Shown here piece after piece: positions 1,636 to 64,000 of a DNA stretch of 64,000 nt. This DNA comes from Leptonemataceae bacterium (GTDB taxonomy: Bacteria > Spirochaetota > Leptospiria > Leptospirales > Leptonemataceae): the NCBI GenBank assembly GCA_965207725.1, contig OZ242290.1, forward strand, positions 861,025 to 925,024, given 5' to 3'. A model generated the notes under the pieces. It made no database searches. It saw only the letters and a list, made by a program, of their open reading frames with translations, and was not told the DNA's origin. Position numbers and translations under genes: made by a program. The stretch's first letter is position 1, and every line of letters begins with the position of its first letter.

Positions 1636-2378
1636 AATTGAGATGATTCAAACGATTGAAAGTTGCTTTTGAGCTGCGATCCTCTATTTTTATAGTAATT
1701 CTCTTTTTTCGGCAACTTGAGAACATGAAAAATGTTTGCAAGTTGGTAGTGTGCTTTTATAAAAAACCCTTCAAAACGCAAAATATAAGAGAGTTCGTTG
1801 ATTGCTAAAGGATATTCTTTTTGCCTGTGGTAATATTCTGCCAATAGTAGATGAGCGTGTAAATCGTCGGGATCCTCCATTACGATTTTTTTTAGAGAAG
1901 AAGGCAAGAAAGTGGTGTGCGGATCGAGCAAAGAGATCCTTGCCTTCCATTTGATCCATTGACGATGATCTAAAAAATGAGGATGCTTGTCTTCAGTTTC
2001 TGCTATGAGTCGTTGCGCCAATTTGACCTCATTGCGAACTAAGTATACTCGCAAAATTGCGATCTGTAACGGTAGATACCAAGAATATTCGTTAGATAAA
2101 TTCATTAAGATTGGCTGGGCCAGGGTAACATTCTGTTGTTCTAAGAATTTAAGAGCCTTCCTGAATTCTTTTTGATCCTCTTTTTTCGGTAGATGATTGA
2201 ACGTCAGAGGTTGCTTGGACAGCAGATGTCCATATTGATGGATCCAGCCCGCAGCAAGTAAAAGTAAAGCCACGCAAATCAAATGATTTGCAAGCTTGCC
2301 CAGCCTATATCTGTTTCGCATACGAGCAAACGTTAGTAGACTTTTCTTTCTTTTTTGCACATCGTTTAAAACGTGCAA
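1632..2378 (-). CDS. hypothetical membrane-anchored protein with TPR-like helical repeats
   Basis: 248 aa with one N-terminal TM helix (LICVALLLLAAGWI) and a helical repeat region. It overlaps the downstream TolC-like gene by 4 nt, so the two are probably co-transcribed. Confidence 0.45.
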   Translation of the reverse strand: MHVLNDVQKRKKSLLTFARMRNRYRLGKLANHLICVALLLLAAGWIHQYGHLLSKQPLTFNHLPKKEDQKEFRKALKFLEQQNVTLAQPILMNLSNEYSWYLPLQIAILRVYLVRNEVKLAQRLIAETEDKHPHFLDHRQWIKWKARISLLDPHTTFLPSSLKKIVMEDPDDLHAHLLLAEYYHRQKEYPLAINELSYILRFEGFFIKAHYQLANIFHVLKLPKKENYYKNRGSQLKSNFQSFESSQL

Positions 2379-2402
2379 AGGTGTTCAATGTTTCAAAAAA
2401 AT

Positions 2403-4049: not shown

Positions 4050-4098
4050 TTTTTACATGAATTTTCCTATTTGAAGAATATTAGCATGATCTGTGGTA

Positions 4099-5403
4099 TT
4101 ATTTATGTAAATTCAGGCGCCGATAAATCGCACCGATATTTTTAGTATAATTCGTACTATCAAAAATTTTTGTAAGAGTTTCTCTATTCAGGATTTTGGA
4201 GATTTTCTCGTCTTTTTCCAATTCCTTTTGGAAATCTAATTTCTCATCTTTCCAGACTTTCATGGCAATTTTTTGTAGCGATTCATAGGCTTCATTTTTA
4301 TCGATCCCTTTATTGACCAAATTGAGCATCACATGTTGGGAGAAGATCAAGCCGCGGGTGGTATTGAGGGTTTTTTTTATTGCCTGCGGATAGATCTGTA
4401 AATTCTTGATGACAAAACACATTCTCTCTAACATATATTCGCTTAAGATGAGAGTGTCCGGTAAAATAATTCTCTCATTGCTTGAATGAGAGATATCTCG
4501 CTCATGCCACAACGCCATATTGCGCAAACTGACTTGCAAATTAGCTTGGATGACGCGAGCCATTCCACAGATACGTTCACAGATTACTGGATTTCTTTTA
4601 TGGGGCATAGCACTGGAACCTTTTTGTCCCACCATAAAGGGTTCTTCAATTTCTCGGCTTTCTGTCTTCTGTAACAGACGGATTTCTTGGGCAAGACGAT
4701 CCAGAGTACCAGCAAGCAAGGCAAGGGCACTCATCATTTCACCGATACGATCTCGTGAGATCACTTGGGTTGAGATAGGATCAACTTCTAGGTCTAAGAG
4801 CCGGCAAACTTCTTCTTCAAAATCTGGCGTGAGTACCGAATAACTACCAACCGCCCCGCTGATTTTCCCAACTGCAATCGATTTCATCGTAGTGGTCAGA
4901 CGTTCTTTTTGTCTCATTAATTCGGCGTAGAAATGTGCAAATTTTAAACCAAGTGTGGTGATTTCCGCATGGACGCCATGAGTCCGACCAATCATAATTT
5001 GATCTTGATAGAGTTGTGCTTTTTCTTTGACTTCTGTAATCAGAGTGAGCAGCCTTTTTTCGATCACCTGTAAGCCATCGCGTAATTGCAAGGCGAGGGC
5101 GGTATCTACGACATCGGAGCTGGTAAGACCATAATGAATATAGCGGCCGTCTGTTTCACCCACACTTTTTTTGACACTCATCAAGAATGCGATCACATCG
5201 TGGTGGACTTTCTTTTCGTTTTCTAAGATTTCTTGTGCATCAAACGTGGCATTTTTTTTGATATTTTCTAGAGTCTTTTGGTCAAATAATCCACGCCGCT
5301 GCCAGACCTCACAGACCGCCAGTTCCACTCGTAACCAGTAGGTAAACGGTGCGGTGGCATAAAAAATTTCTGCCATTTCTGTATTGATGTATCGAGGGAT
5401 CAT
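4099..5403 (-). CDS. purB: adenylosuccinate lyase
   Basis: 434 aa with the fumarate-lyase signature GSSAMPHKRNP and PurB-like N- and C-terminal regions. Confidence 0.9.
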   Translation of the reverse strand: MIPRYINTEMAEIFYATAPFTYWLRVELAVCEVWQRRGLFDQKTLENIKKNATFDAQEILENEKKVHHDVIAFLMSVKKSVGETDGRYIHYGLTSSDVVDTALALQLRDGLQVIEKRLLTLITEVKEKAQLYQDQIMIGRTHGVHAEITTLGLKFAHFYAELMRQKERLTTTMKSIAVGKISGAVGSYSVLTPDFEEEVCRLLDLEVDPISTQVISRDRIGEMMSALALLAGTLDRLAQEIRLLQKTESREIEEPFMVGQKGSSAMPHKRNPVICERICGMARVIQANLQVSLRNMALWHERDISHSSNERIILPDTLILSEYMLERMCFVIKNLQIYPQAIKKTLNTTRGLIFSQHVMLNLVNKGIDKNEAYESLQKIAMKVWKDEKLDFQKELEKDEKISKILNRETLTKIFDSTNYTKNIGAIYRRLNLHK

Positions 5404-7349: not shown

Positions 7350-8927
7350 CTATTGATTCTTTTGCTTGTTTAGGTTTTTTAAAAAATCTACCGTTTTTAA
7401 GGCAATGCCATCAAAAGAACCGTTGGATAAAAATACCAAGGTGGTAGCTTTCATATTTTTGTGTTGATTCCTTTTATCATTCTGCCAATTTTTTTTGAAT
7501 TTTTCCAATAATTCTTGGGGATTTTTTCCATAATGTGCACAATCTGCTCTAGTTTTAATATTTTTCTGGGGCACAGATTTTTTCTGATTGATTGCATGAA
7601 CAATTGAGCGGCTATCCAATAGATTTTCTCGAGAGAATTTTTGTTTGTTAAAAACTGCGCTCAGGTAGATCTGATCTGCTTGCGCCAGTGAATCGATGTA
7701 GCCTTGGGTAAAGGATCGATGATGCGATGAGTTACTGCGCGGTTCAAAAAACACGACGATTTGTGTCAGCGAATTTAATTCACGAATTACTTGAATCAAG
7801 CCACTAACCGCAGTTGGATGATGAGCAAAGTCCTCATATACCGCCAGCAATCCGTCTTTACTTTGATAGAGAAGCTCCTGTCGGCGTTTTACTCCTTGAA
7901 AACTCGCCAGGCTCTGGTTGATAGAATTTTGCGAAAGTGAAAAATTTTTGCGCGGCTCAGTTCTTAAAAGAAACTGAAGAGTGAGGAGAGCCGCCATGGT
8001 GTTTTGCCGATTGATTTCTCCCGCCAGATCTGCTGGTAGTTGGAGATCGAGAGATTCACCTGGTGTCTCGAAAATCCAATGATCATTTTTTTGCCGATAC
8101 GAAAAAAACTGGAATTGTGCAAGACGATTGCTTGGGAGTTCCTGGTGGAATCGTTGTAGAGATGCTAATTTATCTGGTGAGCAATAGAAGACGACTGGTG
8201 AGAGTGCGTGTTCTTGCAGCATTTCACATATCTGCGGATAGTTCCCGTTGGCCACGATCAGGCCGTTTTCAGGTACCATGCGGATCGCCAAAATAAAAGC
8301 TCTTTGATAAGCAGCAAAATCAGGATAGATATCTAAGTGATCGTATTCCAACGAGGTGATCAGCAGAACGGTTGGAAAATAATGAAGAAATTTAGCCTGT
8401 TTATCAAAAAAAGCACTATCGTATTCATCGCCTTCAATCACAAAGAGATCATCTTTGCCCAATCTGGCACCAGCTTCACCATTTTTCAAGAAACCACCGC
8501 AAAATAAACCTGGTCGATATCCAGCGTGACCAAGCAGATGATCAATCAGAAAAGTAGTCGTTGTTTTGCCGTGGGTACCGCTCACAACAATATTTTTTTT
8601 CTTGAGCAAGAGCAACGAGTGGATGACCTGCGGCATGCTAAAAATAGGTAATTGCTGTGCAAGGGCAAATTCTAAGGCACGATTACCGCGTGAAATTGCA
8701 TTGCCTACGATCACTGCATCGGGCGCTTTCAGATCCTCTTGATTGAAATCATGATAATCAATGCCCCATTGTTCTAGTTTATGAGAAACCGGCGGATAGA
8801 GTTGCTTGTCCGAGCCAGATACTCGATAACCAAGTTTCTTTAACAGGTAGGCTAGCTGAGCCATAGCAATACCACCGATGCCAATCAAGTGAAAATGCAT
8901 TTTCTGATTTGTTTTGCTGAGAATCAT
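7350..8927 (-). CDS. mpl: UDP-N-acetylmuramate:L-alanyl-gamma-D-glutamyl-meso-diaminopimelate ligase
   Basis: Mur ligase motifs VSGTHGKTTTT, EGDEYDSAFFDKQAKFLHY, YEDFAHHPTAV and FEPRSN, with an Mpl-like N-terminus (HLIGIGGIAMAQLA...YPPVS). The real start may be the MHFHL codon at 8900. There is an insertion of about 25 aa near the C-terminus. Confidence 0.8.
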   Translation of the reverse strand: MILSKTNQKMHFHLIGIGGIAMAQLAYLLKKLGYRVSGSDKQLYPPVSHKLEQWGIDYHDFNQEDLKAPDAVIVGNAISRGNRALEFALAQQLPIFSMPQVIHSLLLLKKKNIVVSGTHGKTTTTFLIDHLLGHAGYRPGLFCGGFLKNGEAGARLGKDDLFVIEGDEYDSAFFDKQAKFLHYFPTVLLITSLEYDHLDIYPDFAAYQRAFILAIRMVPENGLIVANGNYPQICEMLQEHALSPVVFYCSPDKLASLQRFHQELPSNRLAQFQFFSYRQKNDHWIFETPGESLDLQLPADLAGEINRQNTMAALLTLQFLLRTEPRKNFSLSQNSINQSLASFQGVKRRQELLYQSKDGLLAVYEDFAHHPTAVSGLIQVIRELNSLTQIVVFFEPRSNSSHHRSFTQGYIDSLAQADQIYLSAVFNKQKFSRENLLDSRSIVHAINQKKSVPQKNIKTRADCAHYGKNPQELLEKFKKNWQNDKRNQHKNMKATTLVFLSNGSFDGIALKTVDFLKNLNKQKNQ

Positions 8928-9131
8928 GAAAGTTAATATTGCCCTAGGCAGCAGAATTATGTCTACCAGTCATGCTGATACTGTATTTTTTGTCATATAG
9001 AATTTGTCTATTTTGTAAAGAGTCAAAGAAGTCCGCTGCTGGTATACGTTTTTATTTCAGTAGCTTTTTACAGGGGAATAGCTGAAGTCGACAATGTAAA
9101 TCGAAGATTCGATTACGGTTGAGCCAATGGC

Positions 9132-9716
9132 TCAAAAAAAACTTTTATAAAGGAACAGAACATTTTGCCAAACATTCAGAATAAACAAGACTATAGCGAG
9201 GGGAATCAAGAAAAAAATCATAGACATGAGGTTGTGTCCCCAAATGACTGCGTGTGATTTTTTCTTTGCTCGAGCATAGAGATCTACTGCTAAAAACTGA
9301 GCATAGACTAAACTTATCAGCAAAAAAATAATTCCTAGCCCCGGATGAAAGAAAAAGAATGGAAAACTTGCCCCCACACTGAGATGTGCTAATAATGAAA
9401 AATGATTGATTTTTTCTGCACGCTCACTGACCGGTGAACCAAAGTAGTACTGAACATAGTCGTGCGAACTTGCCAGCACCAAAGAAATCACCAGTAATCC
9501 ACAGGGGATTGCATAGTACTTCAAAGAAAAAAGCGAATAGTACATGGCGAATGGCGATGACAAGAGGAATGGCAAGATCAACAGATAGATCGGCAAATGG
9601 AGGCGCCAAATCACTTGATTTTTATGGAGACCATCCCATTTTTTAAGATCCTCTAAAAGATCATGAGGACGATAATACAGTTTTTCTAAGATTGCAATCG
9701 CCTGTCTTAAATTCAT
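9132..9716 (-). CDS. hypothetical polytopic membrane protein
   Basis: 194 aa with five or more hydrophobic helices; no recognisable catalytic motif. Confidence 0.45.
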   Translation of the reverse strand: MNLRQAIAILEKLYYRPHDLLEDLKKWDGLHKNQVIWRLHLPIYLLILPFLLSSPFAMYYSLFSLKYYAIPCGLLVISLVLASSHDYVQYYFGSPVSERAEKINHFSLLAHLSVGASFPFFFFHPGLGIIFLLISLVYAQFLAVDLYARAKKKSHAVIWGHNLMSMIFFLIPLAIVLFILNVWQNVLFLYKSFF

Positions 9717-9906
9717 GCAAAGTTCATTTTTTGTAATTCAGCTGAATGCTACAGCCCTCCGATCTCACCACCGCTTGCTGCTCTCATTGGATGATCGGTT
9801 ATTCTTTCTTAACCTACTCTTTAATCTCTTATTGAATCTGGGCATCATCGGAAATTCTTAAAATTAGAGCAACTCTTTTGCCTGCCCTCCCCATCAAAGA
9901 CAGAAA

Positions 9907-10443
9907 TTATTGCGATAGATGTTTGAGTGCGTCCTGATAATCTGGTTCGTCAGTTATTTCTGGCACAAGCTGAGCATAGCTGATCTCATCTCGATTATTT
10001 TTATTTTCTGAAATAAAAACTGCCCGGGCAGAAAGTCCGCTGAGCGGCCCGTTAGTCATCGCCACCCCTAAACCCTCCGCAACTCCTGAATTTCGATAAT
10101 GAGAGTATGCTTGAATTTGATCGATTTGGTGCTGATCAAAAAATCTTTTTTGTGCAAAGGGTAAATCTGCGGAAATCATAACTACGGTAAAATCGTTTGC
10201 AGAATCTGCTTCACGGATTTTTTTTATCTGTTCGTTGAATTTTTTTACTTCATTAGCACAAACGTCGGTGTCTACACTTGGTAGCGTGAGGATCATTTTT
10301 TTGCCTTGGATGTCCCCGAGTGAACTTTCTTTTAGATCAGGGGAAATCAAGGAATTATTTGGAAGAGAATCTCCAATTTCTGGGAAGTCTTCTGCCAATT
10401 CTACTTTTTCATTATGGTGGAGGGTTACTTGCTTTTTACTCAT
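9907..10443 (-). CDS. tpx: thiol peroxidase (atypical 2-Cys peroxiredoxin, Tpx)
   Basis: Tpx motifs LPSVDTDVCANEVKKFN, SADLPFAQKRF and GLSARAVFI; 178 aa. Confidence 0.8.
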   Translation of the reverse strand: MSKKQVTLHHNEKVELAEDFPEIGDSLPNNSLISPDLKESSLGDIQGKKMILTLPSVDTDVCANEVKKFNEQIKKIREADSANDFTVVMISADLPFAQKRFFDQHQIDQIQAYSHYRNSGVAEGLGVAMTNGPLSGLSARAVFISENKNNRDEISYAQLVPEITDEPDYQDALKHLSQ

Positions 10444-10554
10444 ACTTTTACACCCCTAACATCTACTGACACACTCTCCTGTCAACATTTTCTTAGCCAT
10501 TTTTGCTTGTGGAGGATTTTTTTTTTGAAGTTTCTCTTTACACATGAAGGAGCA

Positions 10555-10797
10555 TTATTGAAAAAACTCGCGAACCACTGCAGTTACATCACCAATGCCA
10601 ATCAACAAGAAAAGCCATGCGAGACGAAAATGGATCCGTTTTTTAAAGCGAGTTTGTTTATCTCCACGAAAATAGGAGATAATCATAAAAAGACTCCAAG
10701 CGGTCATGAGCAATCCGACTAAAGCCGTCAGCATTAAAGCGAATATTTGAAAAAATTGTGGAATCTCAATCATTTCTAGAGTCCATTCTATAAACAA
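10555..10797 (-). CDS. small hypothetical membrane protein (2 TM)
   Basis: 80-aa ORF with two hydrophobic helices. Orientation fits its neighbours, but there is no other support. Confidence 0.3.
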   Translation of the reverse strand: MFIEWTLEMIEIPQFFQIFALMLTALVGLLMTAWSLFMIISYFRGDKQTRFKKRIHFRLAWLFLLIGIGDVTAVVREFFQ

Positions 10798-34491: not shown

Positions 34492-34521
34492 TTGACATGA
34501 TTTATCTTTTGTACTTATACT
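34492..34521 (+). promoter_or_regulatory. sigma70-like promoter candidate for the 34.5-42.3 kb operon
   Basis: TTGACA (34492-34497), an 18-bp spacer, then TATACT (34516-34521). It is followed by GGAGG (34543-34547) 5 nt before the ATG at 34553. Confidence 0.4.
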
Positions 34522-34552: not shown

Positions 34553-36556
34553 ATGAGTTTTTCACAATTTCCTAAGAGTCCGAATAAGATTGATCCGATA
34601 ATCCCGAGCGCGGTAGCCTCGCGGACATCCCTAGTTTGGGAAGGTCGGAGTAAGCCAGCGGAATCGAAGAAAATAATTGATGAGGCGGCAAAATATATTT
34701 CAGAATATACGAAAATTAAATTGCCACCGGAGATCACAAAAGATCTGGACGTTATGGCCAGTCTTGAAGATAAAATATACAACTATGTGAATCAAGCTTA
34801 CGTGAACATGTTCAATCGTTATGCGATAACGGTTGAAGATGAGATGGTAAAGAAGGTTCGTGATTTTGTAGATAAAGAAGAGATAAAGAATTTAGCCCGC
34901 TATACGCCACGGGAAATCACTGAGATCCTTGATAAGGTTGGTGGTGCCGATAAGTTCAATACTGGTGAAGTTGAAAAATCAGTGGTGAATATGTATGGTC
35001 ACTTGCAAGGTCATATCCAAAGAGGTGTGTATGATCTAGAGGTAGAGACAAATGCGATTTTACGGCAGAAACAAGACGTTGGTTCGTTTGTCCGCGGGGA
35101 AAACGCCTATGCCATCGTAAAGTGTGCTTTTAAGGACAGTCGCGCTAAGCCAAAGACCGTTACTGATATTAAATTATCTGTAAATATTTTGGATTCTGAG
35201 TTGATCAGTCCTATTTTTCACTATCAGGTAACAGTTGAGCATTTGCTCAAAGAGCAATTGGCGTCACATATAACCTATCTGATTGATCGTGAAATTGAAA
35301 AATTAAAGGATGAAATTGTCGATGCTGGGAAACAAGAGATGTCTTCTGGTGAAGTTATGTTTGCGAAGATTAAGTCTACTGAGAGTTTTACGGATGACAA
35401 TGTCAGCGATCCAAACTCTAGGAGATATACAATTCTATCGAAAAAATTTATAGATAGAATTGAAGGATTGCGGGCAGAAATTGATCAGGATGAATATGAT
35501 CCACTTAATTTGCGAGAGCAAATTAAATCGATTATCGATTCTGAGAATATTCGTAATCGTGGCTTCAATACTGCAGTAAACACAATTACTTCGATATTGG
35601 ATAGCTCAAAATTGGGATATCAGTACTGCGATAACAAAAAGAATGCCCGTGAGGCAATCATCCGCGAATATGAGGATCAGAACGAAGATCATCTACCCGA
35701 TGAACGCTATCAGCTGAGATTGGTGTACTACGATCAAAATCAAATCCGCGACTTAAAACGGATATATGATCAAAGGATAAATGCATTTTTCCGCGAGGTT
35801 CAAGTGGTTTGGGACGTTGTTAATGCGCTTCATGAAAGAAGTAAGAGACGAGCGTTTGGCTTTCTCCCCAAGAAAATCACTGATTTTGAGGATCTTTGTA
35901 TGTCCATAATGCCAGCTCAATGGCGAAAAGAACGCAAGGAGCTAGCAGAAGATGAAGACGAATTGCAATGGCGCACACTTCAGTTCCGCGATCATTCGAG
36001 TACTTTTGTTGAGAAAAACAATCGCACTTATTCCACTGAGATTAAGAATAATGGTGATATGTTGAATCAAATGCGCAAGGATTTACAAAAGCTCTTTGGC
36101 TACCAAAATCCCATGGAAAGGGTATTGGTAGAGGAGAGATTAATGTTTCTTGAACACGAATTCAATGATTTCACCTACGAAGTCAATCCACATCATCTGC
36201 AGCCAGGAGTATTGCTGGACGTTGATATGACGACTACGAAACGTAAACAGTATATGATGCGGGCAATGGCAAATGTATTAAATGAATTCCTGTTTGGAAT
36301 TTCACAAGGTTTTGCTGATGCTGCCTTTGCTACATTCTCTCGAAGAAGATCTACGACGAGAGATACTGCCGACTATACTTTTACTGAAGTTCAAGAAGGA
36401 GAATCTGTGAGTAGCACTGCCTACGAGCAAAGAATGTCCTCTTTTTCCTCTGGTCAGAGTCAGACTATGGGTGGATCACAAAGTTCCGCAAATGTAACCC
36501 CAAGGTCGCTTAAGGATTCTAATCCAGATAAGGGTTCGGGTTTGCAAGAACTGTAA
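34553..36556 (+). CDS. hypothetical soluble protein, 667 aa (first gene of uncharacterised operon)
   Basis: Long ORF with a strong SD. There are no Walker or other catalytic motifs. The N-terminus is Pro-rich and the C-terminal tail (about 80 aa) is Ser/Thr/Gln-rich and low-complexity (RRRSTTRDTADYTFTEVQEGESVSSTAYEQRMSSFSSGQSQTMGGSQSS). Confidence 0.6.
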   Translation: MSFSQFPKSPNKIDPIIPSAVASRTSLVWEGRSKPAESKKIIDEAAKYISEYTKIKLPPEITKDLDVMASLEDKIYNYVNQAYVNMFNRYAITVEDEMVKKVRDFVDKEEIKNLARYTPREITEILDKVGGADKFNTGEVEKSVVNMYGHLQGHIQRGVYDLEVETNAILRQKQDVGSFVRGENAYAIVKCAFKDSRAKPKTVTDIKLSVNILDSELISPIFHYQVTVEHLLKEQLASHITYLIDREIEKLKDEIVDAGKQEMSSGEVMFAKIKSTESFTDDNVSDPNSRRYTILSKKFIDRIEGLRAEIDQDEYDPLNLREQIKSIIDSENIRNRGFNTAVNTITSILDSSKLGYQYCDNKKNAREAIIREYEDQNEDHLPDERYQLRLVYYDQNQIRDLKRIYDQRINAFFREVQVVWDVVNALHERSKRRAFGFLPKKITDFEDLCMSIMPAQWRKERKELAEDEDELQWRTLQFRDHSSTFVEKNNRTYSTEIKNNGDMLNQMRKDLQKLFGYQNPMERVLVEERLMFLEHEFNDFTYEVNPHHLQPGVLLDVDMTTTKRKQYMMRAMANVLNEFLFGISQGFADAAFATFSRRRSTTRDTADYTFTEVQEGESVSSTAYEQRMSSFSSGQSQTMGGSQSSANVTPRSLKDSNPDKGSGLQEL

Positions 36557-36748: not shown

Positions 36749-37729
36749 ATGATAGATAATGTAAAAGTTGATTTTAGTAACATTGGGCGAAAAAAATCTT
36801 ACAATACTGTCTTACGTCATATGTTGAACGTGACAGACATGGTCAACAGAGTAGGGAAGGGTGAAAATCTCGCAGAAATATTAAATGCTGCGCTTGAGGA
36901 AAAGAAGATAATGGAAGATCAGCTTCTTCCGTTGGTTTCATTGATTTTGGTGCAGAAGTACAACTATCAATATCGAGCCGAAAATTTGAGTATGGAATTC
37001 AATGACTTTGAATCTCTAGTGGCTATGTGTCAAAAATGCGAGTCGTTAGATTTTGTGATCACCTATTTTCATCCGAATTCTAAAGTATGCGTTTTGAATC
37101 CTAAGAAAATTGGCCTTTGGCAGGAGCATGTGCAGAGTCTGCACAAAAACGAGCTGTTGGTGGTCTATGTCCAGAATAAAAGGAAAGATAAGGAATTGAA
37201 CCAACGAGCACTAAAGATTTTATTTGATTTTTTTAATGGCCAAGATATCAAGGAACTTGATACGGATTTCACATCGCATGTAACAGATGCTGCTACTTGG
37301 GAAGCCCCTAACAAGAGCGAAGGAGACCCTGCAAGCGTTGCTGTTCTTACGGAAAAAAAAGTATCCACCCAAACTGCTCCATCAACAGCAAAGCAAAAGA
37401 AAAATTTGACTCCACAATATTCAGTTCAGGTAACCAATGAACTATTTCATAATGGAAACGTGGAGGCTTGGAAAAATATTATTGCATCGTATCAGGATCG
37501 ATATCCAAGTTGCCGAGTCTTAGTCTACTACGAAGGTGAACTAATTCAAGATTTAAATGCCCTCTTTAAGTGGGGTAAAGTGAAACATGGTGGAGTCCTC
37601 TTGTTTCAGGTTTTGGGAGAAGATATTAGTGACGTGAGACGTTTACAAAAATATTTGTTTGAAGGTGCTTCCTCACGTTATGAAGCATTTCTTAAGCAAG
37701 ACATTTATCGCCATTTAAATCTCTTTTAA
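36749..37729 (+). CDS. hypothetical protein, 326 aa
   Basis: Same-strand ORF with no recognisable motifs; part of the cluster. Confidence 0.5.
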   Translation: MIDNVKVDFSNIGRKKSYNTVLRHMLNVTDMVNRVGKGENLAEILNAALEEKKIMEDQLLPLVSLILVQKYNYQYRAENLSMEFNDFESLVAMCQKCESLDFVITYFHPNSKVCVLNPKKIGLWQEHVQSLHKNELLVVYVQNKRKDKELNQRALKILFDFFNGQDIKELDTDFTSHVTDAATWEAPNKSEGDPASVAVLTEKKVSTQTAPSTAKQKKNLTPQYSVQVTNELFHNGNVEAWKNIIASYQDRYPSCRVLVYYEGELIQDLNALFKWGKVKHGGVLLFQVLGEDISDVRRLQKYLFEGASSRYEAFLKQDIYRHLNLF

Positions 37730-37762: not shown

Positions 37763-38485
37763 ATGTTTTCCAAGTACTTTTCGCAGCAACAAACAAGTAT
37801 TCTTAAATCAAAAAAGAATACTCCGGTCAAAAAGCCAAATCAGGCTAGCAAGACAAAAAATCTCAAAGCATACCGATCTTTTTTTTCGTTTTTGAAGGAT
37901 CACTTGCCTTATGAGTATGCGTTAGCGACTGGCAAGGTCCGCAATCATCAAAAAATATTGAGTAAAAACTGTGATCTACTTGTATATAAGAAATGGTGTG
38001 ATGCCTATTTAGAATTGAGCGGGGGCTATGTTATCGTCGATGATATATACGCTTTTATGACTGTGGAGATGGCCGCATCTCCTGCGAGCTTACGTGCTCA
38101 TGTAAACTTGACCAGTGCCATGAAAAATCTGAAGTCTAGTGAAATTAACGCAGAAAAAAAGCAAGAGGAATTAATTCCTATTTATTCGGTTTATTTTTCT
38201 TACTCATCTTTACAACAATTACCAGATGTCAAAGAGGCACTATTGTCCTTATGTGAAGAAAAAAAAATTCCAATAAATGAAAGGCCGGATATTCTCTGTA
38301 TTTTAGATCAGGGAATTTTGGTTCGAGACTGGGAGAAAGGAGGGGATTACCGGGGGCTACTTACGGAAAATGAAACTCTTATGTGGTTTTATATTTTATT
38401 TTTGGAGCACATTGATGTAAAAGGTGGTTTGAGTATTAATTTGCGGAATTTTGTCAAAAGCAACAGGGTCTATGATGAATGCTGA
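37763..38485 (+). CDS. hypothetical protein, 240 aa
   Basis: Same-strand ORF 33 nt after the previous gene, with a Lys-rich N-terminus and no recognisable motifs. Confidence 0.5.
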   Translation: MFSKYFSQQQTSILKSKKNTPVKKPNQASKTKNLKAYRSFFSFLKDHLPYEYALATGKVRNHQKILSKNCDLLVYKKWCDAYLELSGGYVIVDDIYAFMTVEMAASPASLRAHVNLTSAMKNLKSSEINAEKKQEELIPIYSVYFSYSSLQQLPDVKEALLSLCEEKKIPINERPDILCILDQGILVRDWEKGGDYRGLLTENETLMWFYILFLEHIDVKGGLSINLRNFVKSNRVYDEC

Positions 38486-38604
38486 TTGGACGAATTCGGG
38501 GGAAAATCAAATTACAAGGAGAGTCTTTGAAATATTGTTGGACAAAGGTATAGTCTGAGCGATAATAAGAGATAAATACTGAAAGGAAGCAAATTAATTT
38601 TCTT

Positions 38605-39753
38605 ATGAATATTATCAAAAACAAAATGAGCAAACCAAGAGGACTTGCGAGAACTTTGTCTAGAGTTACCATGAAATCTTTTGTTTTGCTTTTGTTTCTT
38701 GTAGCTTCTTGCCAGAGTGATTCTCCTCGAGATTTTATTTTATCGATTGATACCTCTGGTTCTATGTTTCAGGGCAATTCACCGGATGAGAAGATGATCA
38801 ACCGAGTAAAAGATGCGATAGAGCCTTTGGTTGATCTTACAAAAAAGGATGACCGAGTTTACTTAATATCTTTCGATGATGGTGTGCAAACTCATCTTGA
38901 TTTTGAAATTCAAGACGAAAGCGATAAGCAGATGATCATTGAAACGGTCCGATCCTTTGATGCCAAGGGAGCGTATACTGATATGGGGAGCATGGTTCTT
39001 TCTATACGCGAATATTTAATCGAGAGACATGAGGAGGATCGAGACACATTTGTGATTATTCTCTCAGATGGGATTGATGATCCTAATCCGCAACGGGAAT
39101 CAAGTTTTCAAATTCAGCTAGAAGATTTGGCGATAGATGGGAATAAACCGATTGGATCCTTTGAGGACACTTACATTTATTATTTGAGTGTGGGACTCTT
39201 GGTAGACGAAGGATTGATCAAGGATTTAGAAGGTATTGCCCCAGATCAAGTTCGGACCATTGAGGATGGAGATCCTTCCTCAAGTATTGCATCTTTGATT
39301 AATGATTTGGAGAGCAAAAGAAGGATACAGTATATCGAAAATTTAGTAAAGGAATACGATATGGAAATTGGAATTCTCATCATGCTCATCATTTTATTAC
39401 TTTTTATTCGGATACAGATTACTCGAAACAAGGTAAAGGGCAAATTCTTTTATTATAATCGGAAATTGGGTAGCTATACTGAGAAGTCATTTGTCTTAGA
39501 TCGATTAAAGAAGCATCGAGTGGTCATTGGCTCCAAGATAGGCGTAGATTTGCTCATCCGTGGATTGAAACTCAAAAAGCCGTTGGTACTGAGAGCAGTG
39601 AACCTAGAAGATGGATTCGGTTTAATCGCAAGTAAAAAGAGTAGAGGTCTCATATCGTATAGTCAGCAAAAGGAAGAGGGAAAAATTTCGATTGATGATA
39701 GATTCTCGATTGGAGATTTTGATTTTAGATATGCTAAGAAAAAAAGAAATTAG
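38605..39753 (+). CDS. lipoprotein with periplasmic von Willebrand factor A domain, one TM helix and a cytoplasmic FHA-like domain
   Basis: Lipobox LVASC; the likely true start is MKSFVLLL at 38671. VWA MIDAS motif ILSIDTSGSM...ISFDDG...SDGIDD. TM helix IGILIMLIILLLFIRI. The C-terminal FHA-like pattern is HRVVIGSKIGVDLLIRG...GLISYS...FSIGDFDFRY. Confidence 0.6.
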   Translation: MNIIKNKMSKPRGLARTLSRVTMKSFVLLLFLVASCQSDSPRDFILSIDTSGSMFQGNSPDEKMINRVKDAIEPLVDLTKKDDRVYLISFDDGVQTHLDFEIQDESDKQMIIETVRSFDAKGAYTDMGSMVLSIREYLIERHEEDRDTFVIILSDGIDDPNPQRESSFQIQLEDLAIDGNKPIGSFEDTYIYYLSVGLLVDEGLIKDLEGIAPDQVRTIEDGDPSSSIASLINDLESKRRIQYIENLVKEYDMEIGILIMLIILLLFIRIQITRNKVKGKFFYYNRKLGSYTEKSFVLDRLKKHRVVIGSKIGVDLLIRGLKLKKPLVLRAVNLEDGFGLIASKKSRGLISYSQQKEEGKISIDDRFSIGDFDFRYAKKKRN

Positions 39754-42277
39754 AGAACAATTAGATCACGAATTACGTGGTTTGCGAGCCAATGAGCGCG
39801 TATTCTGTCTAGATAAAAACCTTTTTCTCGTCTATACTGGTACCAATAGTTCTGATTTACAGCCATTTATTCGCGTGGGTAGCGGTGAAAAAATACATCG
39901 CAATTCAGCGGCATGGATTGGGCATGTAATCCTGTCCGAACAGGATCCAGTCAATCTCGGGCGAGAAATCGAATGGATTGAACATGCGATTGAGAAAGGC
40001 TTTGCGTCAATCAAATATGTAGGCAGTAAAAAACGTCTTGATCAAATTTATAATATCACAGGAATGCCTCAGCTTGAAGATAAGGGGCGCAATGTTCCGA
40101 TCCAAATTTTGCCGTATGGAAAAATTAACGGTGAGAAAGACAAGATACAAGTATATGCGATTCAAGAAAGAGAGAATTTTTCAATACAAATAAATAATAG
40201 AAGAGTCTTTGACTATAATGATCGAGTCAAAAATAAATCTTGGTCAGTTGAAACCGAGTACAAATTGTTTGCAGAAGCATTGCAGAAGATGCCAAGAACC
40301 AAGGCCAGTGACCCACAAGATATAAGTTTTGTCTGGGTTAAAGGAAGAAAATTTGATAAATTGTTGCCGACACTCTATTGGAATTGTCTTGGCAAGGGAT
40401 TTATTTTCGAGCCATCATCTGGCTTTCATCAAGACCTATTTGAATGTCACATTGATCCCACGAATGTAGTCGGATATTCTGCGAGCGATGGATTGACATC
40501 AGGGTTAAATAACGGCCTTTTATATGCTCATCAAGAGCATCAAGAAATATGTGTGAATATCGCCGATGAAAATCAGTTTGTTGGTCTTAAAAAAATATAT
40601 AATTCAGCTAACCTACGGCAAATGACCGCTGGTGTGGCGCTTCCATTTGCCAAAAGCATGTTTTTGAGCAAGTCGAGACGAGGAAACTATAGTGCATTGA
40701 GTTGGCGTTTTTCTGCTCAGAGTGATTACTTTGTGAACGTACTTTTCCCTAGCATGCGAAAATCTGCGAAGAAGCAAATAGAGAATATTCGTGCCCCGTA
40801 TGATGTCGAAATTCAGAAAATTGATACCCATGATGATTTTAAGCTGTCAACCGCAAATCTGCAACTTCAGTATCCCGGAGCAATCGACCAAGAGACCTTT
40901 GAGCTAAAAAAAATTAGGGGAAAAAACTTCCCACTGATTCCGAATACCGAGTATATCTTCCATCAAGCAGAGAATCTTAATGATATTATGGATGTGGCAC
41001 TGCGTTGTTTCCGTGACACAGAGTATTTAAGTAGCCTAACAAAGATCTATCAGTTTCATCAGGTCGCGGAACTCAAGTCTGAGACCGATTATTTGCGTCA
41101 ATCGCTTGAGGAGCTATTGTATATCCACAGATCAATCGAGAATAGTCAGACAACTGAGTTTGTCAATTTGGCTAGTTTTGTTCAAGTGTTAAAATATACG
41201 GTAACTTTTGGTAACTATACCAAAGAGCAGATGTCTCGCTATAATAAATTAGAAAAGACAATATCTTTGACCAAGTATCGCAACAGCGATTTGCTCGGGT
41301 TACAAAGCAAAGAGGTGACTATTCAGATCTTATCTTTTGGCAATAGGGAAAAAAAATCCATATTATTCATCGATAATCTGCAAAAAGATAAACTCCCTTG
41401 GCACTTGCCAAGAGAAATACTGACATCTCGGCAGCAAGAAAAACAATACGGTAAAAAATTGATTTTATGGCAAAAAATTATCGGCAGAAAGAAAGAATAC
41501 GAAGAATACTTACCGATTCTCCAAGTGCTTGAGAAAATGGTCAATCAACAACAATTTTTCAAGGAACAATGGATTGCTTTTCGAAAGTTAGTAGAACGTT
41601 TGGGAACGAGCGTGGTTGGAGAAAGTATTTTTGGTGAGCGGCCCTACTTAAAACAGAGCAAAAAATCTTGGTCAGATTTGGTATCGAACGGTTTTAATCT
41701 AGGTTCTTTGAAAGACGTTCTGATAGACTTAAAAGAGAAAATAATGAACCCTAAGGGCTTGATCATTTTTGCCTTGCTAGCATTGAGTTCTTTTCTTCTG
41801 GTGATAATGGTCAGCAGATACTCACCATCAACTCCAGAATTCATTGGGTTGGTTGACGTTGGTAATTTTCAGGAAAATGAGAATATTCCCGGAGCAGAAG
41901 AGATTGAGATCACTGATGCTGAAATCTTTGAATATGCGAATATTTTGGCTACGCAAAATAATTTTCAATCGTTAGAAGCATCGATAGACAACAATGAAAA
42001 TGCGAAAAGAAATCCGAATTTGATCTTTCCAAGTGACTTATTGAGGTTACCGGATCAACGATTGACACGAGTAAAATCTGGCAGTTATATCTGGGAAATT
42101 GCCCGTAACCAGTATCAACAGGATTTTGCTCGCTTATTATTGCTCGAAAAAGAGATCAGTGAAAATGGCAGCAAAAAAGATATCGAGAAATATATTGCTT
42201 GGGTCAAACGATTAGCTGTTACTAAAAAAATGAAAGAAGTTTTGCTACGATTACAGCCAACTATTGAATCCCTATAG
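39692..42277 (+). CDS. hypothetical bitopic membrane protein, 861 aa: large cytoplasmic N-domain, single TM, periplasmic C-terminal LysM-like domain
   Basis: TM helix GLIIFALLALSSFLLVIMVS at about residue 690. The C-terminal segment FEYANILATQNNFQSLEASIDNNENAKRNPNLIFPSDLLRLP fits the LysM pattern (...L...N.l.nPnlI.pGd.L.lP). The gene overlaps the upstream gene by about 60 nt, suggesting translational coupling. Confidence 0.55.
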   Translation: MMIDSRLEILILDMLRKKEIREQLDHELRGLRANERVFCLDKNLFLVYTGTNSSDLQPFIRVGSGEKIHRNSAAWIGHVILSEQDPVNLGREIEWIEHAIEKGFASIKYVGSKKRLDQIYNITGMPQLEDKGRNVPIQILPYGKINGEKDKIQVYAIQERENFSIQINNRRVFDYNDRVKNKSWSVETEYKLFAEALQKMPRTKASDPQDISFVWVKGRKFDKLLPTLYWNCLGKGFIFEPSSGFHQDLFECHIDPTNVVGYSASDGLTSGLNNGLLYAHQEHQEICVNIADENQFVGLKKIYNSANLRQMTAGVALPFAKSMFLSKSRRGNYSALSWRFSAQSDYFVNVLFPSMRKSAKKQIENIRAPYDVEIQKIDTHDDFKLSTANLQLQYPGAIDQETFELKKIRGKNFPLIPNTEYIFHQAENLNDIMDVALRCFRDTEYLSSLTKIYQFHQVAELKSETDYLRQSLEELLYIHRSIENSQTTEFVNLASFVQVLKYTVTFGNYTKEQMSRYNKLEKTISLTKYRNSDLLGLQSKEVTIQILSFGNREKKSILFIDNLQKDKLPWHLPREILTSRQQEKQYGKKLILWQKIIGRKKEYEEYLPILQVLEKMVNQQQFFKEQWIAFRKLVERLGTSVVGESIFGERPYLKQSKKSWSDLVSNGFNLGSLKDVLIDLKEKIMNPKGLIIFALLALSSFLLVIMVSRYSPSTPEFIGLVDVGNFQENENIPGAEEIEITDAEIFEYANILATQNNFQSLEASIDNNENAKRNPNLIFPSDLLRLPDQRLTRVKSGSYIWEIARNQYQQDFARLLLLEKEISENGSKKDIEKYIAWVKRLAVTKKMKEVLLRLQPTIESL

Positions 42278-42405: not shown

Positions 42406-42816
42406 TTATTTGTCCAGATTTTTCTTGTGTATTTCTTTGTCAGACTTGGTTGCAAGGAGGGTAAGAATATCACCGATGAATTTATGATGCTCATTCAAGA
42501 TCATTTCTAGCTGTTTTTTTTTATCCACTTCAATAAGAGTTTTTACTAGTTTTCCTAGATTTTTGCGGATACTGGCATCTAAATAAATTGGATCATCATC
42601 AATTTTATTATCGGCCTCCGAGGTTTGCTGAATACTACCCAGTAATTGTTCAATAGATCGCTTGCGAGCACCTTTACCAAGATTACTGATTTGTTGACTC
42701 AATGATTCTGGATTTTGCGAATCTTTGTTGCTCAAATTTTCTTTGGGCATTTTTGGCCTCTGTTCCCTCATCTCGGTGATCAATGATTTCAAGCTATCTG
42801 CGTTCAGATTGTCCAT
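42406..42816 (-). CDS. hypothetical small charged protein (136 aa)
   Basis: ORF only, no motifs. It lies antisense between the cluster and the GGDEF gene. Confidence 0.35.
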   Translation of the reverse strand: MDNLNADSLKSLITEMREQRPKMPKENLSNKDSQNPESLSQQISNLGKGARKRSIEQLLGSIQQTSEADNKIDDDPIYLDASIRKNLGKLVKTLIEVDKKKQLEMILNEHHKFIGDILTLLATKSDKEIHKKNLDK

Positions 42817-61759: not shown

Positions 61760-61832
61760 TCCCCTGTAGCTCAGCTGGTAGAGCAGTTGGCTGTTAACCA
61801 ATTTGTCGTAGGTTCGAATCCTACCGGGGGAG
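61760..61832 (+). tRNA. tRNA-Asn (anticodon GTT)
   Basis: Cloverleaf folded by hand: acceptor TCCCCTG/CGGGGGA, D-arm GCTC-AGCTGGTA-GAGC, anticodon stem GTTGG/CCAAT with loop CTGTTAA, variable loop TTGTC, T-arm GTAGG-TTCGAAT-CCTAC, discriminator G. It is followed by a T6 run. Confidence 0.85.
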
Positions 61833-61916
61833 CACTTTTTTGGAGGGAGATGATTGAAAGCTGGTAGTGGCGTTTGAATTTTTAGATATGTTTTTAGAAT
61901 GAGCTTCTTCCCATTC

Positions 61917-62693
61917 TTATTTATAGTTCTTAAAATGAATATCTATCTCATCTCTCATTTCGATACCTACCTCTGTAAAGCATTCGATTAAAGCGTCATA
62001 GGTATTGTCACCACCGAGGAAATCCCAAAACTCATTAGCTACTTTCAATTCTTTTTTTAAGTCGAACATCCCCGCCATAGTCCATCTGCTATAAGCTTTT
62101 GGGTAATAGGGGTTATAAGGGATGGCTATGAGACTATGGATTCTTTTTTCTTTATTTTTTTCATTGAGCAAGGCAATTGCAATCCATTCAAGTAAGGTTC
62201 TTTTAAAAACAGAAAAACCACTTTTGTTAGGCTTTGCTGTTTTTATGTCTATTAAGAAAATATTCTTTTTATAATCTTCTAAGTAAATATCTGCTTTAAT
62301 TGGCTTTATTTTATTTAGCTTTCCTTTGTTAAAAACTTCTCTAATAGTATTAATTTCTTTGCATTTGTTGGGATTTCCATTACTACTCAATTGATTTATA
62401 ATATCAGAAATAACTCTATTACTTTCTGTACTAATACAATTTCCTACAGCAACTTGTCTTGAAACAACTTTAAATTTTTTCTGGGCTAGTTTCTCAGCAA
62501 CAGGTTCAAAAATAGAAGTTCCAAAAGCTGTATTTAGAGAGTGGATAAACTGATATAGAGCTAGTCGATCTTTCCCTATCAGACTTGTATGAAAAGGCAT
62601 ATGAGCAGGCTCTGGATTGTAAGATTTGAATTTCTTGCGTAAACAATTTCCAATAATTTCCTTTAAGCTGTTTCGTTCTTCTTTTGAAAGCAC
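61917..62693 (-). CDS. type II restriction endonuclease candidate (TdeIII-like, PD-(D/E)xK)
   Basis: 258 aa. Candidate catalytic motif ADIYLEDYKK...FLIDIKTAKPN (D...(D/E)xK). It overlaps the upstream MTase gene by 1 nt, and the region is very AT-rich and next to a tRNA. The family assignment comes from memory of the TdeIII-type motif, not from a search. Confidence 0.45.
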   Translation of the reverse strand: MLSKEERNSLKEIIGNCLRKKFKSYNPEPAHMPFHTSLIGKDRLALYQFIHSLNTAFGTSIFEPVAEKLAQKKFKVVSRQVAVGNCISTESNRVISDIINQLSSNGNPNKCKEINTIREVFNKGKLNKIKPIKADIYLEDYKKNIFLIDIKTAKPNKSGFSVFKRTLLEWIAIALLNEKNKEKRIHSLIAIPYNPYYPKAYSRWTMAGMFDLKKELKVANEFWDFLGGDNTYDALIECFTEVGIEMRDEIDIHFKNYK

Positions 62694-64000
62694 TATTCCC
62701 GCTCTCTCAAATGAAAAATAATTTCACAATAAGCATTATTTCTATTCTTTTCAGTTCGATTTAAGACAGGTCTCTTAAATTGATTGATGATTTGCATATT
62801 TGCTTCTTTTGCAATAATAGGATAAAGATTATACTTGTCATTGGCAACCAAAAAAACATTGTAATTCTTGGTGAGTAGCTTTTTTGAATGAATTAATACT
62901 CTGGCTATTTCTTCAATATACATTTTCCTTGCTGTTTCTTTCTGTCCTTTTGCAAGGGAACCGATTTCTGCTTTATCTCTTCTCGGAAAGCCAAATAGCT
63001 CATATGCATAAGCGTGTTGCTCGTGATAATCAATGAGCCCGACATAAGGAGGGCTTGAAAAGATTCCTTGAATTTTTTTTCTCAGAATCAGCTTTGTGAA
63101 GGCAGGATTTTCTTTTTGGAGAACTTGTACTAGATCAATATTTTTTGCATTACCTGTTAAACAGCTCTGATGTGTCTTTGTTCTCAACATTCGAAAATCC
63201 TGATACCTTTTAATTGTGTCTTTACAGTAGCGATTCCACCAATTTTCCAAAGAAAAAAGAGGTTTACACATTTTCCCATGCTTTTTACAATAATAGGGAG
63301 CTAACTGTGGTTCTATTAATGTTGTTAGGTCTGCATGGGTTGTGGCTCGACAAGATCGCATAGTCCTACTTAAAATAAGTTTTAATACATTTTTCAATGG
63401 GCTTTCTTCTTTTTCAATTTGCCTAAGAGTATAATGAGCTTGATCTAAAATATGAGGGATATACCATTTATTTAGGAAGGTATTGCGGACAGAATTTTTT
63501 AAATGGATATCATATTTTTCAACAAGGAAAAAATATTCCTCCAATAGGGCTTTTTCCTTTTCTCGGGCGTAATTTCTTTCATCAACTATTTTTTGTCTTA
63601 CCTTAATTTTGAAAGAGGGAGAGGGAAAATATTTAAGATTAATCTCCTGTATTTTCTTGATTAATTCTTGATCAAAGGCAATAAATCGTGTCTTAGCAAA
63701 TTTAGTACGTAAATTATTTGAGATTCGAGTACAAGCAATTCTTAGTTTAGAAATATCAACATTTAATAGCTTATTTTTTGCTATAAAAGTATTAAAGTAA
63801 GAAATGTCAATACCAATTCCGTTAAGTCCCATTTCATTGGCTTGAATGAGCGTAGTTCCACTGCCACTAAAAGGGTCTAAAATAATATCCTCTTTTTCAA
63901 AAAAAGTCTCTCTCTTAAAATTATCCGTTTTATCGTTCAAAAAATATTCTACTAACTGAGGAATAAACTTCCCCTTATAAGGATGAAGACGATGAACATG
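62693..64000 (-). CDS. DNA amino-methyltransferase (N4-C/N6-A; motifs DPFSGSGTT and SPPY), 5' end beyond window
   Basis: Motif I-like DPFSGSGTT sits near the window edge and motif IV SPPY lies about 280 aa downstream. The reading frame stays open for all 20 codons upstream of the ORF-track TTG start, out to position 64000, so the gene is truncated by the window. Confidence 0.7.
   Translation of the reverse strand, partial: HVHRLHPYKGKFIPQLVEYFLNDKTDNFKRETFFEKEDIILDPFSGSGTTLIQANEMGLNGIGIDISYFNTFIAKNKLLNVDISKLRIACTRISNNLRTKFAKTRFIAFDQELIKKIQEINLKYFPSPSFKIKVRQKIVDERNYAREKEKALLEEYFFLVEKYDIHLKNSVRNTFLNKWYIPHILDQAHYTLRQIEKEESPLKNVLKLILSRTMRSCRATTHADLTTLIEPQLAPYYCKKHGKMCKPLFSLENWWNRYCKDTIKRYQDFRMLRTKTHQSCLTGNAKNIDLVQVLQKENPAFTKLILRKKIQGIFSSPPYVGLIDYHEQHAYAYELFGFPRRDKAEIGSLAKGQKETARKMYIEEIARVLIHSKKLLTKNYNVFLVANDKYNLYPIIAKEANMQIINQFKRPVLNRTEKNRNNAYCEIIFHLRERE

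Follow-up and report, generated by a model that had tools for sequence, protein, structure and literature searches.

A candidate wall-tethered membrane anchor encoded at the end of a spirochaetal cfpA cluster

We analyzed a stretch of 64,000 nucleotides (hereafter "the window") from a Leptonemataceae bacterium (assembly GCA_965207725.1, contig OZ242290.1, positions 861,025 to 925,024 of the forward strand), focusing on a gene that ends at position 42277 and encodes a large protein with a single transmembrane helix. This gene closes a conserved cluster that opens with cfpA, the gene of the cytoplasmic filament protein, and it directly follows a gene for a membrane protein with a VWA domain. We propose, with a probability of about 40%, that its product serves the CfpA filament module as a membrane anchor or adaptor tethered to peptidoglycan, working together with this VWA partner. 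The proposal draws on a periplasmic tail that appears to derive from LysM, on a cytoplasmic part modeled with a metallo-beta-lactamase-like fold that has lost the catalytic motif of this superfamily, and on the gene order around cfpA. The original prediction for this gene, made by a model from the sequence alone, suggested a component of the divisome, of cell polarity or of a secretion platform. A scaffold or platform role still describes the protein best, and its position at the end of the cfpA cluster directs attention to the cytoplasmic filament ribbon and away from a generic divisome or secretion platform.

The gene, its family and the LysM-derived tail

As originally predicted, an open reading frame runs without interruption on the forward strand from 39692 to 42277, its stop codon occupying positions 42275-42277. 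It spans 861 codons from TTG 39692 or 860 from ATG 39695; residue numbers below are counted from the latter and decrease by 12 if translation starts at ATG 39731. The frame overlaps the upstream VWA gene (38605-39753), which terminates with TAG 39751-39753. We consider ATG 39731, which gives 848 residues and an overlap of 23 nucleotides, a likelier start than TTG 39692, because each of nine related loci that share this gene order has one plausible ATG, located between 9 nucleotides after and 23 nucleotides before the VWA stop codon, and because the closest orthologue (P0002) aligns from Met13 of the window protein. The longer overlap of 62 nucleotides is a by-product of taking the maximal frame. 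Thus, the overlap proposed originally is present and the close spacing is conserved among the nine loci, with the length of the overlap varying from locus to locus and, in the window, probably being 23 rather than about 60 nucleotides. The conserved spacing would fit coupled expression of the two genes. We take the gene to be real, since an orthologue with 44% identity resides in identical synteny and since the family includes 167 representatives. The predicted features of the gene and its product are as follows.

39731..42277, forward strand: probable coding sequence of a bitopic protein of 848 amino acids; start chosen from the nine related loci (the maximal frame opens at TTG 39692 or ATG 39695)
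39782..40984, forward strand: cytoplasmic beta-rich region, residues 30-430, the most likely location of the metallo-beta-lactamase-like fold according to the secondary-structure map
40985..41602, forward strand: cytoplasmic helical domain with a beta-hairpin (residues 539-565) and two long helices (residues 579-635), from the AlphaFold2 model
41603..41749, forward strand: juxtamembrane linker, residues 637-685, modeled with low confidence (predicted local distance difference test, pLDDT, below 50 at residues 639-672) and poorly conserved (highest column entropy of all regions)
41750..41818, forward strand: single transmembrane helix, residues 686-708, with the core GLIIFALLALSSFLLVIMV, from the Kyte-Doolittle profile; helix predicted at residues 686-706
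41819..41893, forward strand: periplasmic linker, residues 709-733, with the acidic motif LxxxGxxQ....PG(A)E(E), from conserved columns
41894..42160, forward strand: putative LysM-derived module with swapped halves, from conservation, profile searches and a re-ordering test
42161..42274, forward strand: C-terminal periplasmic helices, residues 823-860, with an RLAVT motif, predicted to pack with the long helix of the preceding module into a small helical bundle

The sole hydrophobic segment of the protein is GLIIFALLALSSFLLVIMV at residues 688-706 (Kyte-Doolittle maximum 2.83; nothing else exceeds 1.4), preceded by approximately 685 residues and followed by 154. This agrees well with the single transmembrane helix and the periplasmic segment of about 150 residues that had been predicted, the latter being a tail of the wall-binding type. 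We infer that the N-terminus is cytoplasmic and the C-terminus periplasmic, since the protein carries no signal peptide and modules of the LysM type are extracytoplasmic. An AlphaFold2 model of the whole protein, built on an alignment of 44 family members, reached a mean pLDDT of 87.5 and a predicted template modeling score (pTM) of 0.74, with low confidence confined to residues 639-672 and 704-712; residues 431-636 were modeled as a helical domain that includes the hairpin and the two long helices listed above.

Searches against Pfam, NCBIfam and PADLOC gave no match for the protein. A word-indexed search of 5.8 billion proteins returned only the protein itself and the orthologue P0002 (44% identity, 885 residues), and the same two proteins came back when the search was repeated with the 44-member alignment. 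Scanning species-representative genomes with an alignment of the two sequences found nothing. When a profile of these two sequences was run with HMMER against 1.84 billion cluster representatives, we recovered 167 proteins at E<=1e-3, 38 of them at E<1e-30. Family members mostly measure 750-980 residues, and the distant ones align over the N-terminal ~170 and the C-terminal ~150 residues only. All identified contexts of family members belong to Spirochaetota, and none of the 22 clusters that we looked up carried a functional name, the few named ones reading "hypothetical protein". On these searches, the family appears to be uncharacterized, unnamed and restricted to spirochaetes.

Among the family matches are also standalone proteins of ~650 and of ~125-205 residues. 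Indeed, two relatives are split at the juxtamembrane linker into overlapping frames, one (L013) into 7887-10256 and 10181-10783, the other (L065) into 2036-3982 (648 residues) and 3940-4560 (206 residues), each thus consisting of a cytoplasmic protein of ~650 residues and a protein of ~200 residues with the transmembrane helix and the tail. Splits at the linker provide independent support for this domain boundary. A third relative (L008, 14886-16919) lacks the helix and the tail, and only ~330 nucleotides are left before the next gene. Such split or tail-less relatives (L008, L013 and L065) may reflect either genuine gene splitting or frameshifts introduced in assembling metagenome-assembled genomes (MAGs).

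No other region of the protein is as well conserved as the tail. Its motif in the window protein reads NPNLIFPSDLLRLP, then RVKSGSYIWEIA. The original prediction recognized a LysM-like motif in this region and named the Pfam LysM profile (PF01476) as the appropriate check. The window protein failed this check, its tail giving no match at E<=10, and the tail of the orthologue scored 12.2 bits (gathering cut-off 20.9 bits), over profile positions 27-43 only. At the level of the family, the LysM signal emerged: 10 of the 44 members matched the Pfam profile at E<=0.01, distant members passed the cut-off with 27.9-30.2 bits, and a profile of 33 tails searched against the PDB had LysM proteins only at the top, led by SafA (2.3e-6) and LytE (2.7e-6), followed by 6ve2 ("LysM domain-containing protein", 1e-5) and, lower, by Kbp and TsaP (3jc8). 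As in these LysM proteins, both characteristic halves, VxxGDxxWxIA and NPxLIFPGDxLxLP, are recognizable in the family.

The order of these halves is inverted. HMMER aligned the C-terminal half of LysM (NPxLIFPGDxLxLP) to positions 29-54 of the tail profile and the N-terminal half (VxxGDxxWxIA) to positions 56-74. In the window protein, the module consists of a helix (residues 741-754), NPNLIFPSDLLRLP (corresponding to the C-terminal half), a tight turn, TRVKSGSYIWEIA (corresponding to the N-terminal half), and a long helix. The models accordingly show helix, strand, strand, helix instead of the canonical beta-alpha-alpha-beta order: in both AlphaFold models, strands at residues 782-784 and 790-792 form a hairpin between the helix at 741-754 and the long helix, which is the topology expected of a LysM circularly permuted between its two helices. 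Re-ordering the halves in silico turned the two fragments matched in one member (P0063, 27.9 bits) into one stretch covering LysM profile positions 2-43 (30.2 bits), and raised another (P0015) from 17.0 to 19.4 bits. The window protein matched in neither its native nor its re-ordered form; its copy is strongly diverged, with FPSD for FPGD and SGSYIW for GDTLW. We therefore regard the tail as a probable LysM-derived module with order-swapped halves, the similarity being significant at the family level only. The LysM-like motif of the original prediction is thus real, and the LysM assignment holds for the family, with the window copy itself falling short of the Pfam profile. The swapped halves suggest a natural circular permutation of LysM, of which a text search of the literature found no description, and binding of the tail to peptidoglycan is plausible.

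Gene order around cfpA

The genes that precede the studied gene in the cluster are listed below.

34553..36556, forward strand: cfpA, cytoplasmic filament protein, 667 amino acids, first gene of the cluster (NCBIfam NF040882)
36749..37729, forward strand: TP0747-like gene; its orthologues carry PF27497 (TP_0747_N), and it follows cfpA in nearly every locus (tblastn)
37763..38485, forward strand: DUF6602 / PD-(D/E)xK-like gene, 240 amino acids (Pfam DUF6602, E 2.8e-5; PADLOC PD_DExK, E 2.5e-10)
38605..39753, forward strand: partner VWA gene, with a lipoprotein-type signal (LVAS|C), a periplasmic VWA domain, a transmembrane helix at about residues 263-282 and a cytoplasmic tail of ~100 residues (Pfam VWA, sequence)

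The identification of cfpA is based on the NF040882 equivalog, which the window protein matched with 836.5 bits (cut-off 500; E 1.5e-251) over profile positions 2-604 of 605; on this match, the source would be a filament-bearing spirochaete. A strong promoter-like site of the sigma-70 type (11 of 12 positions) lies just upstream of cfpA at 34492-34521. The full order in the window is uvrC (reverse strand), cfpA, the TP0747-like gene, the DUF6602 gene, the VWA gene, the studied gene, a small reverse-strand gene, a GAF-GGDEF gene, the gene for pyruvate phosphate dikinase (PPDK) and YchF, and the contig of the orthologue P0002 has an identical order.

To place this order in a wider context, we fetched 52 cfpA loci with CfpA as bait from species-representative genomes, all of them MAGs assigned to Leptospirales, Leptonemataceae or other Spirochaetota, and compared these neighborhoods (L006-L057) by tblastn and hmmsearch, with flanks of 10 kb. 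The closest CfpA proteins, with 74-75% identity, came from MAGs of Leptospiraceae/Leptonemataceae. Three arrangements were observed, including those in additional loci.

Arrangement A: cfpA / TP0747-like / PD-DExK / VWA / studied gene, found in the window, L001, L002, L007, L008, L009, L011, L013, L048, L055 and a metagenome contig (L060)
Arrangement B: PD-DExK / VWA / cfpA / TP0747-like / PPDK, the 10-kb flanks containing no family member, found in ~35 of the 52 loci
Arrangement C: family member directly upstream of cfpA with no VWA gene between, found in L019, L036 and L058

Two further loci (L062 and L065) show a partial arrangement A, the cfpA end being cut off or beyond the contig. The PD-DExK-like and VWA genes thus lie downstream of cfpA in ~10 loci and upstream in ~35, and the TP0747-like gene and PPDK are nearly always downstream. 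The family members of arrangement C share no more than 14-17% identity with the window protein. That the family adjoins cfpA in different gene orders and at such divergence is harder to explain by inertia than a static synteny would be.

Several observations weigh against a role in the filament module. Most of the sampled cfpA loci, those of arrangement B, have no family member nearby; on one complete chromosome with this arrangement, the family member lies ~530 kb away and is coupled to a downstream gene of ~192 residues, and other distant members are likewise unlinked to cfpA. Moreover, a metabolic gene, PPDK, is conserved beside the cluster as well, which makes synteny alone weak evidence. 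Our link to CfpA comes from gene order only, and we found no published link between the family and CfpA. These observations are what one would expect if the protein were a peptidoglycan-tethered envelope scaffold or sensor working with its VWA partner in a periplasmic or membrane process unrelated to CfpA, such as wall growth or flagellar or envelope organization, with the adjacency to cfpA reflecting inherited order; the presence of a class A penicillin-binding protein gene near family members in two loci (L060 and L063) points the same way. However, passive inheritance explains less easily why the adjacency to cfpA recurs in three gene orders and among very divergent members, and we consider a scaffold unrelated to CfpA rather unlikely, while taking it more seriously than the other alternatives discussed below.

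Distant members located away from cfpA have an overlapping downstream gene (L004 10403-10990, L061 3014-3610, L064 10259-10837), which encodes a soluble helical protein of 192-198 residues without a Pfam family, suggesting that the subfamily not linked to cfpA has another conserved partner. The two penicillin-binding protein genes (transglycosylase/transpeptidase) are located directly upstream of cfpA in L060 (1-2493) and, in L063 (3998-6649), near a family member that is not linked to cfpA, a possible link to wall synthesis.

The window resembles the Treponema CfpA system in having a clear cfpA followed by a conserved TP0747-like gene; in T. pallidum, TP0747 is presumably followed directly by TP0746 (dikinase). 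The T. pallidum locus, as described, differs in lacking the studied gene at the equivalent place, and Tp0749, encoded just upstream of T. pallidum cfpA, was rejected as a family member on account of being a miniprotein, with published models ending at K65 (PMC9200625).

As for the other neighboring genes, the TP0747-like protein of the window gave a faint match to the integrase core (rve, E 0.031). The DUF6602 / PD-(D/E)xK-like gene is conserved beside cfpA in 42 loci. Its product also matches a NucC-like effector model of PADLOC (E 3.7e-7), has D71, K121, G184, W190, T201 and R228 as invariant residues and shows no canonical (D/E)xK after D71, and it may be another non-catalytic or atypical PD-(D/E)xK member. 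This 240-residue neighbor is the only one of the three proteins to match PADLOC (PD_DExK and NucC-like), which has no family for the studied protein or for the VWA protein. We rejected the possibility of a defense island, given the lack of a PADLOC match for either membrane protein and the stability of this core locus across ~50 genomes. Downstream of the studied gene, a small convergent gene (42406-42816, reverse strand) encodes an acidic, helical protein of 136 residues with no family; it occupies the same place in L001 (42% identity), and L060 has a reverse-strand gene of similar size at this position. Farther away, positions 62001-64000 have a GC content of 0.32, compared with ~0.40 elsewhere, and directly follow a tRNA-Asn (61760-61833), which could mark the edge of an inserted element. 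An Rfam scan of the window found two tRNAs only.

The cytoplasmic fold and the VWA partner

The original prediction described the cytoplasmic part as an orphan domain without detectable catalytic motifs. It is an orphan no longer: searching the PDB with Foldseek placed ELAC2 (long-form RNase Z) on top, with E 9e-7 over ~600 columns, followed by RNase Z, beta-CASP nucleases, Apyc1 and phosphodiesterases of the PhnP type. The model contains the alpha-beta/beta-alpha sandwich of the metallo-beta-lactamase superfamily (RNase Z / ELAC branch), and we accordingly predict that the cytoplasmic domain adopts this fold, which by itself does not explain the function. The resemblance to ELAC2 is one of fold. 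The studied protein is only 8-11% identical to metallo-beta-lactamase-fold enzymes, a search of all PDB sequences with the family profile returned nothing relevant, and, unlike ELAC2, the protein is membrane-anchored and has no detectable internal duplication. We do not claim a tandem-domain origin, as aligning residues 30-205 with 206-430 by hhalign revealed no repeat.

The catalytic, metal-binding motif HxHxDH has been lost. A regular-expression search found it in none of 25 close members, the lone match to the pattern being HCHKD at residue 458 of one of them (P0017), outside the fold region and unconserved. Only two histidines, H245 and H332, are conserved among these members, and the place after the fourth strand where the motif is expected reads PxNxGxE in the family consensus, within the most conserved block of residues 30-430 (RVFxxDRDxFxIYTG...PFxRxG...PxNxGxE...YxGS). 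The same type of search on the studied protein found no Walker A, HRD, DFG, HxHxDH or HExxH, consistent with the absence of kinase and Walker motifs reported originally. We infer from these results that the cytoplasmic part is a catalytically dead, non-catalytic scaffold. Nevertheless, E82, N87 and E91 stay conserved near the old motif site, and losing the canonical motif is no proof of losing all catalysis.

An active hydrolase, namely a nuclease or phosphodiesterase with a non-canonical site that acts with the PD-(D/E)xK-like neighbor on nucleic acids or nucleotides, for example in chromosome handling or defense, would account for the identity of the best structural matches (RNase Z, ELAC2, Apyc1 and the PhnP-type enzymes) and for the PADLOC matches of the neighbor. 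Residues E82, N87, E91, H245 and D370 are conserved and could form a new site, and chromosome condensation and filamentation have been observed in cfpA mutants (PMC3398590). We nonetheless consider such an enzyme improbable: neither HxHxDH nor any other histidine-rich motif occurs in the 25 members, the identity to known enzymes is very low and the PDB profile search was empty, neither membrane protein matches PADLOC, and, throughout the phylum, the cluster behaves as a stable core locus and not as a variable island.

The neighbor encoded upstream had been predicted to be a VWA-FHA protein. Its VWA domain is well above the Pfam cut-offs (VWA_2, 45.5 bits against 27; VWA, 41.7 bits against 23.8), and the DxSxS motif of the metal ion-dependent adhesion site (MIDAS) appears as DTSGS at residues 49-53, invariant in 42 orthologues. 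This architecture is shared by ~45 cfpA loci. The FHA part of the prediction fared less well. The cytoplasmic tail of the VWA protein in the window has no Pfam FHA match; the best PDB matches of a partner-tail profile were FHA domains at sub-significant values (DgcB FHA, E 0.057; aprataxin, 0.26; Ki-67, 0.66; range up to 0.8); 3 of 27 orthologous tails matched Yop-YscD_cpl or FHA_2, two models of the FHA clan, with E ~0.01; and the SxxH position that binds phospho-threonine is unconserved. It is improbable that the studied protein is a transmembrane signaling module in which the periplasmic tail senses the state of the wall and relays it through phospho-threonine binding by the FHA-like partner tail or through the downstream GAF-GGDEF cyclase, as, although the partner tail resembles FHA domains and a GAF-GGDEF gene follows in the window, L001, L008, L011, L013, L048 and L060, the FHA similarity is as weak as described, the cluster contains no kinase or phosphatase, and a convergent reverse-strand gene separates the GGDEF gene.

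Returning to the proposed filament anchor, the studied protein and its partner have mirror topologies and could contact each other on both sides of the membrane. A candidate for the outer contact is a motif just outside the membrane, LxxxGxxQ...(V/I)PG(A)E(E/D), that characterizes the VWA-coupled subfamily (conserved columns S712, E715, L719, G723, Q726, P732, G733 and E734). MIDAS sites of VWA domains usually complete their metal coordination with a carboxylate of the ligand, as in integrin I-domains, which makes this acidic motif a candidate partner contact. All 11 members whose gene is known to come after a VWA gene possess the motif, and all seven members that are unlinked to cfpA or in arrangement C lack it. 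This correlation coincides with phylogeny, and we regard it as a lead only.

Two overlapping promoter-like sites (10 of 12 positions) lie at 38527-38566 on the forward strand, in the gap of 119 nucleotides that precedes the VWA gene. The VWA gene and the studied gene may thus also have their own promoter; the number of such sites in this region is no higher than in shuffled sequence.

A possible link between filament and envelope

Combining these predictions, we suggest the following mechanism. Translation of the protein would be closely coupled to that of the upstream VWA membrane protein. The diverged, order-swapped LysM and the small helical bundle of the tail would tether the protein to peptidoglycan, and the acidic PG(A)EE motif outside the membrane would supply a carboxylate ligand to the metal site of the partner's VWA domain. 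Inside the cell, the ~640 cytoplasmic residues, with their motif-less metallo-beta-lactamase-like fold and helical domain, would provide a non-catalytic platform for docking. Given the membership of the gene in the cfpA cluster, the likeliest cargo would be the CfpA ribbon or its accessories, i.e., the TP0747-like protein, the PD-(D/E)xK-like protein or the FHA-like tail of the VWA protein, and the protein would thereby attach the ribbon to both membrane and cell wall. Within this scheme, the contacts with partners and the choice of CfpA as cargo are speculative. Its most complete form, in which the two proteins constitute an envelope-spanning ribbon anchor, with a dead platform inside, a permuted LysM outside and PG(A)EE plugging the MIDAS, that holds the ribbon, the wall and the periplasmic flagella in register, is doubtful.

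Parts of this scheme have parallels in known systems. FimV and HubP of Pseudomonas and Vibrio are bitopic polar hubs of the inner membrane in which a LysM wall anchor in the periplasm is joined to a large cytoplasmic scaffold that organizes other machines, and the studied protein would likewise be a wall-anchored bitopic scaffold. In contrast to it, FimV has the opposite topology, with a canonical LysM at the N-terminus and cytoplasmic TPR repeats at the C-terminus, and neither FimV nor HubP has a metallo-beta-lactamase-like domain, sequence similarity to the studied protein or a link to CfpA or to a VWA partner. Csd5 of Helicobacter pylori is a small single-pass adaptor that binds the wall through an SH3-type domain and also binds the bactofilin CcmA. 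The concept of a single-pass protein that couples a cytoplasmic filament to peptidoglycan through a periplasmic domain is shared; the studied protein differs in its LysM-derived module and its large cytoplasmic part, and any connection to CfpA comes from gene order only.

The filaments themselves lie directly under the cytoplasmic membrane and run parallel to the periplasmic flagella (PMC13398306), and Treponema denticola requires CfpA filaments for normal division, for the structure of its chromosome and for virulence (PMC3398590). The title of an electron tomography study by Izard et al. (2004), as cited in PMC13398306 and PMC3398590, speaks of "novel bridging and anchoring components" of the cytoplasmic filaments of treponemes, and we found no paper that names these components, seen by tomography to bridge the filaments and attach them to the membrane.

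Regardless of CfpA, the protein combines two structural curiosities, an apparent natural circular permutation of LysM and what looks like a membrane-anchored pseudo-enzyme with a beta-lactamase fold. The linkage to cfpA raises it from a generic membrane protein to a candidate filament anchor: a membrane protein with a predicted wall-binding tail that is encoded in the cfpA cluster next to its VWA partner would offer a concrete and testable candidate for the connection between the cytoplasmic filament and the spirochaetal envelope.

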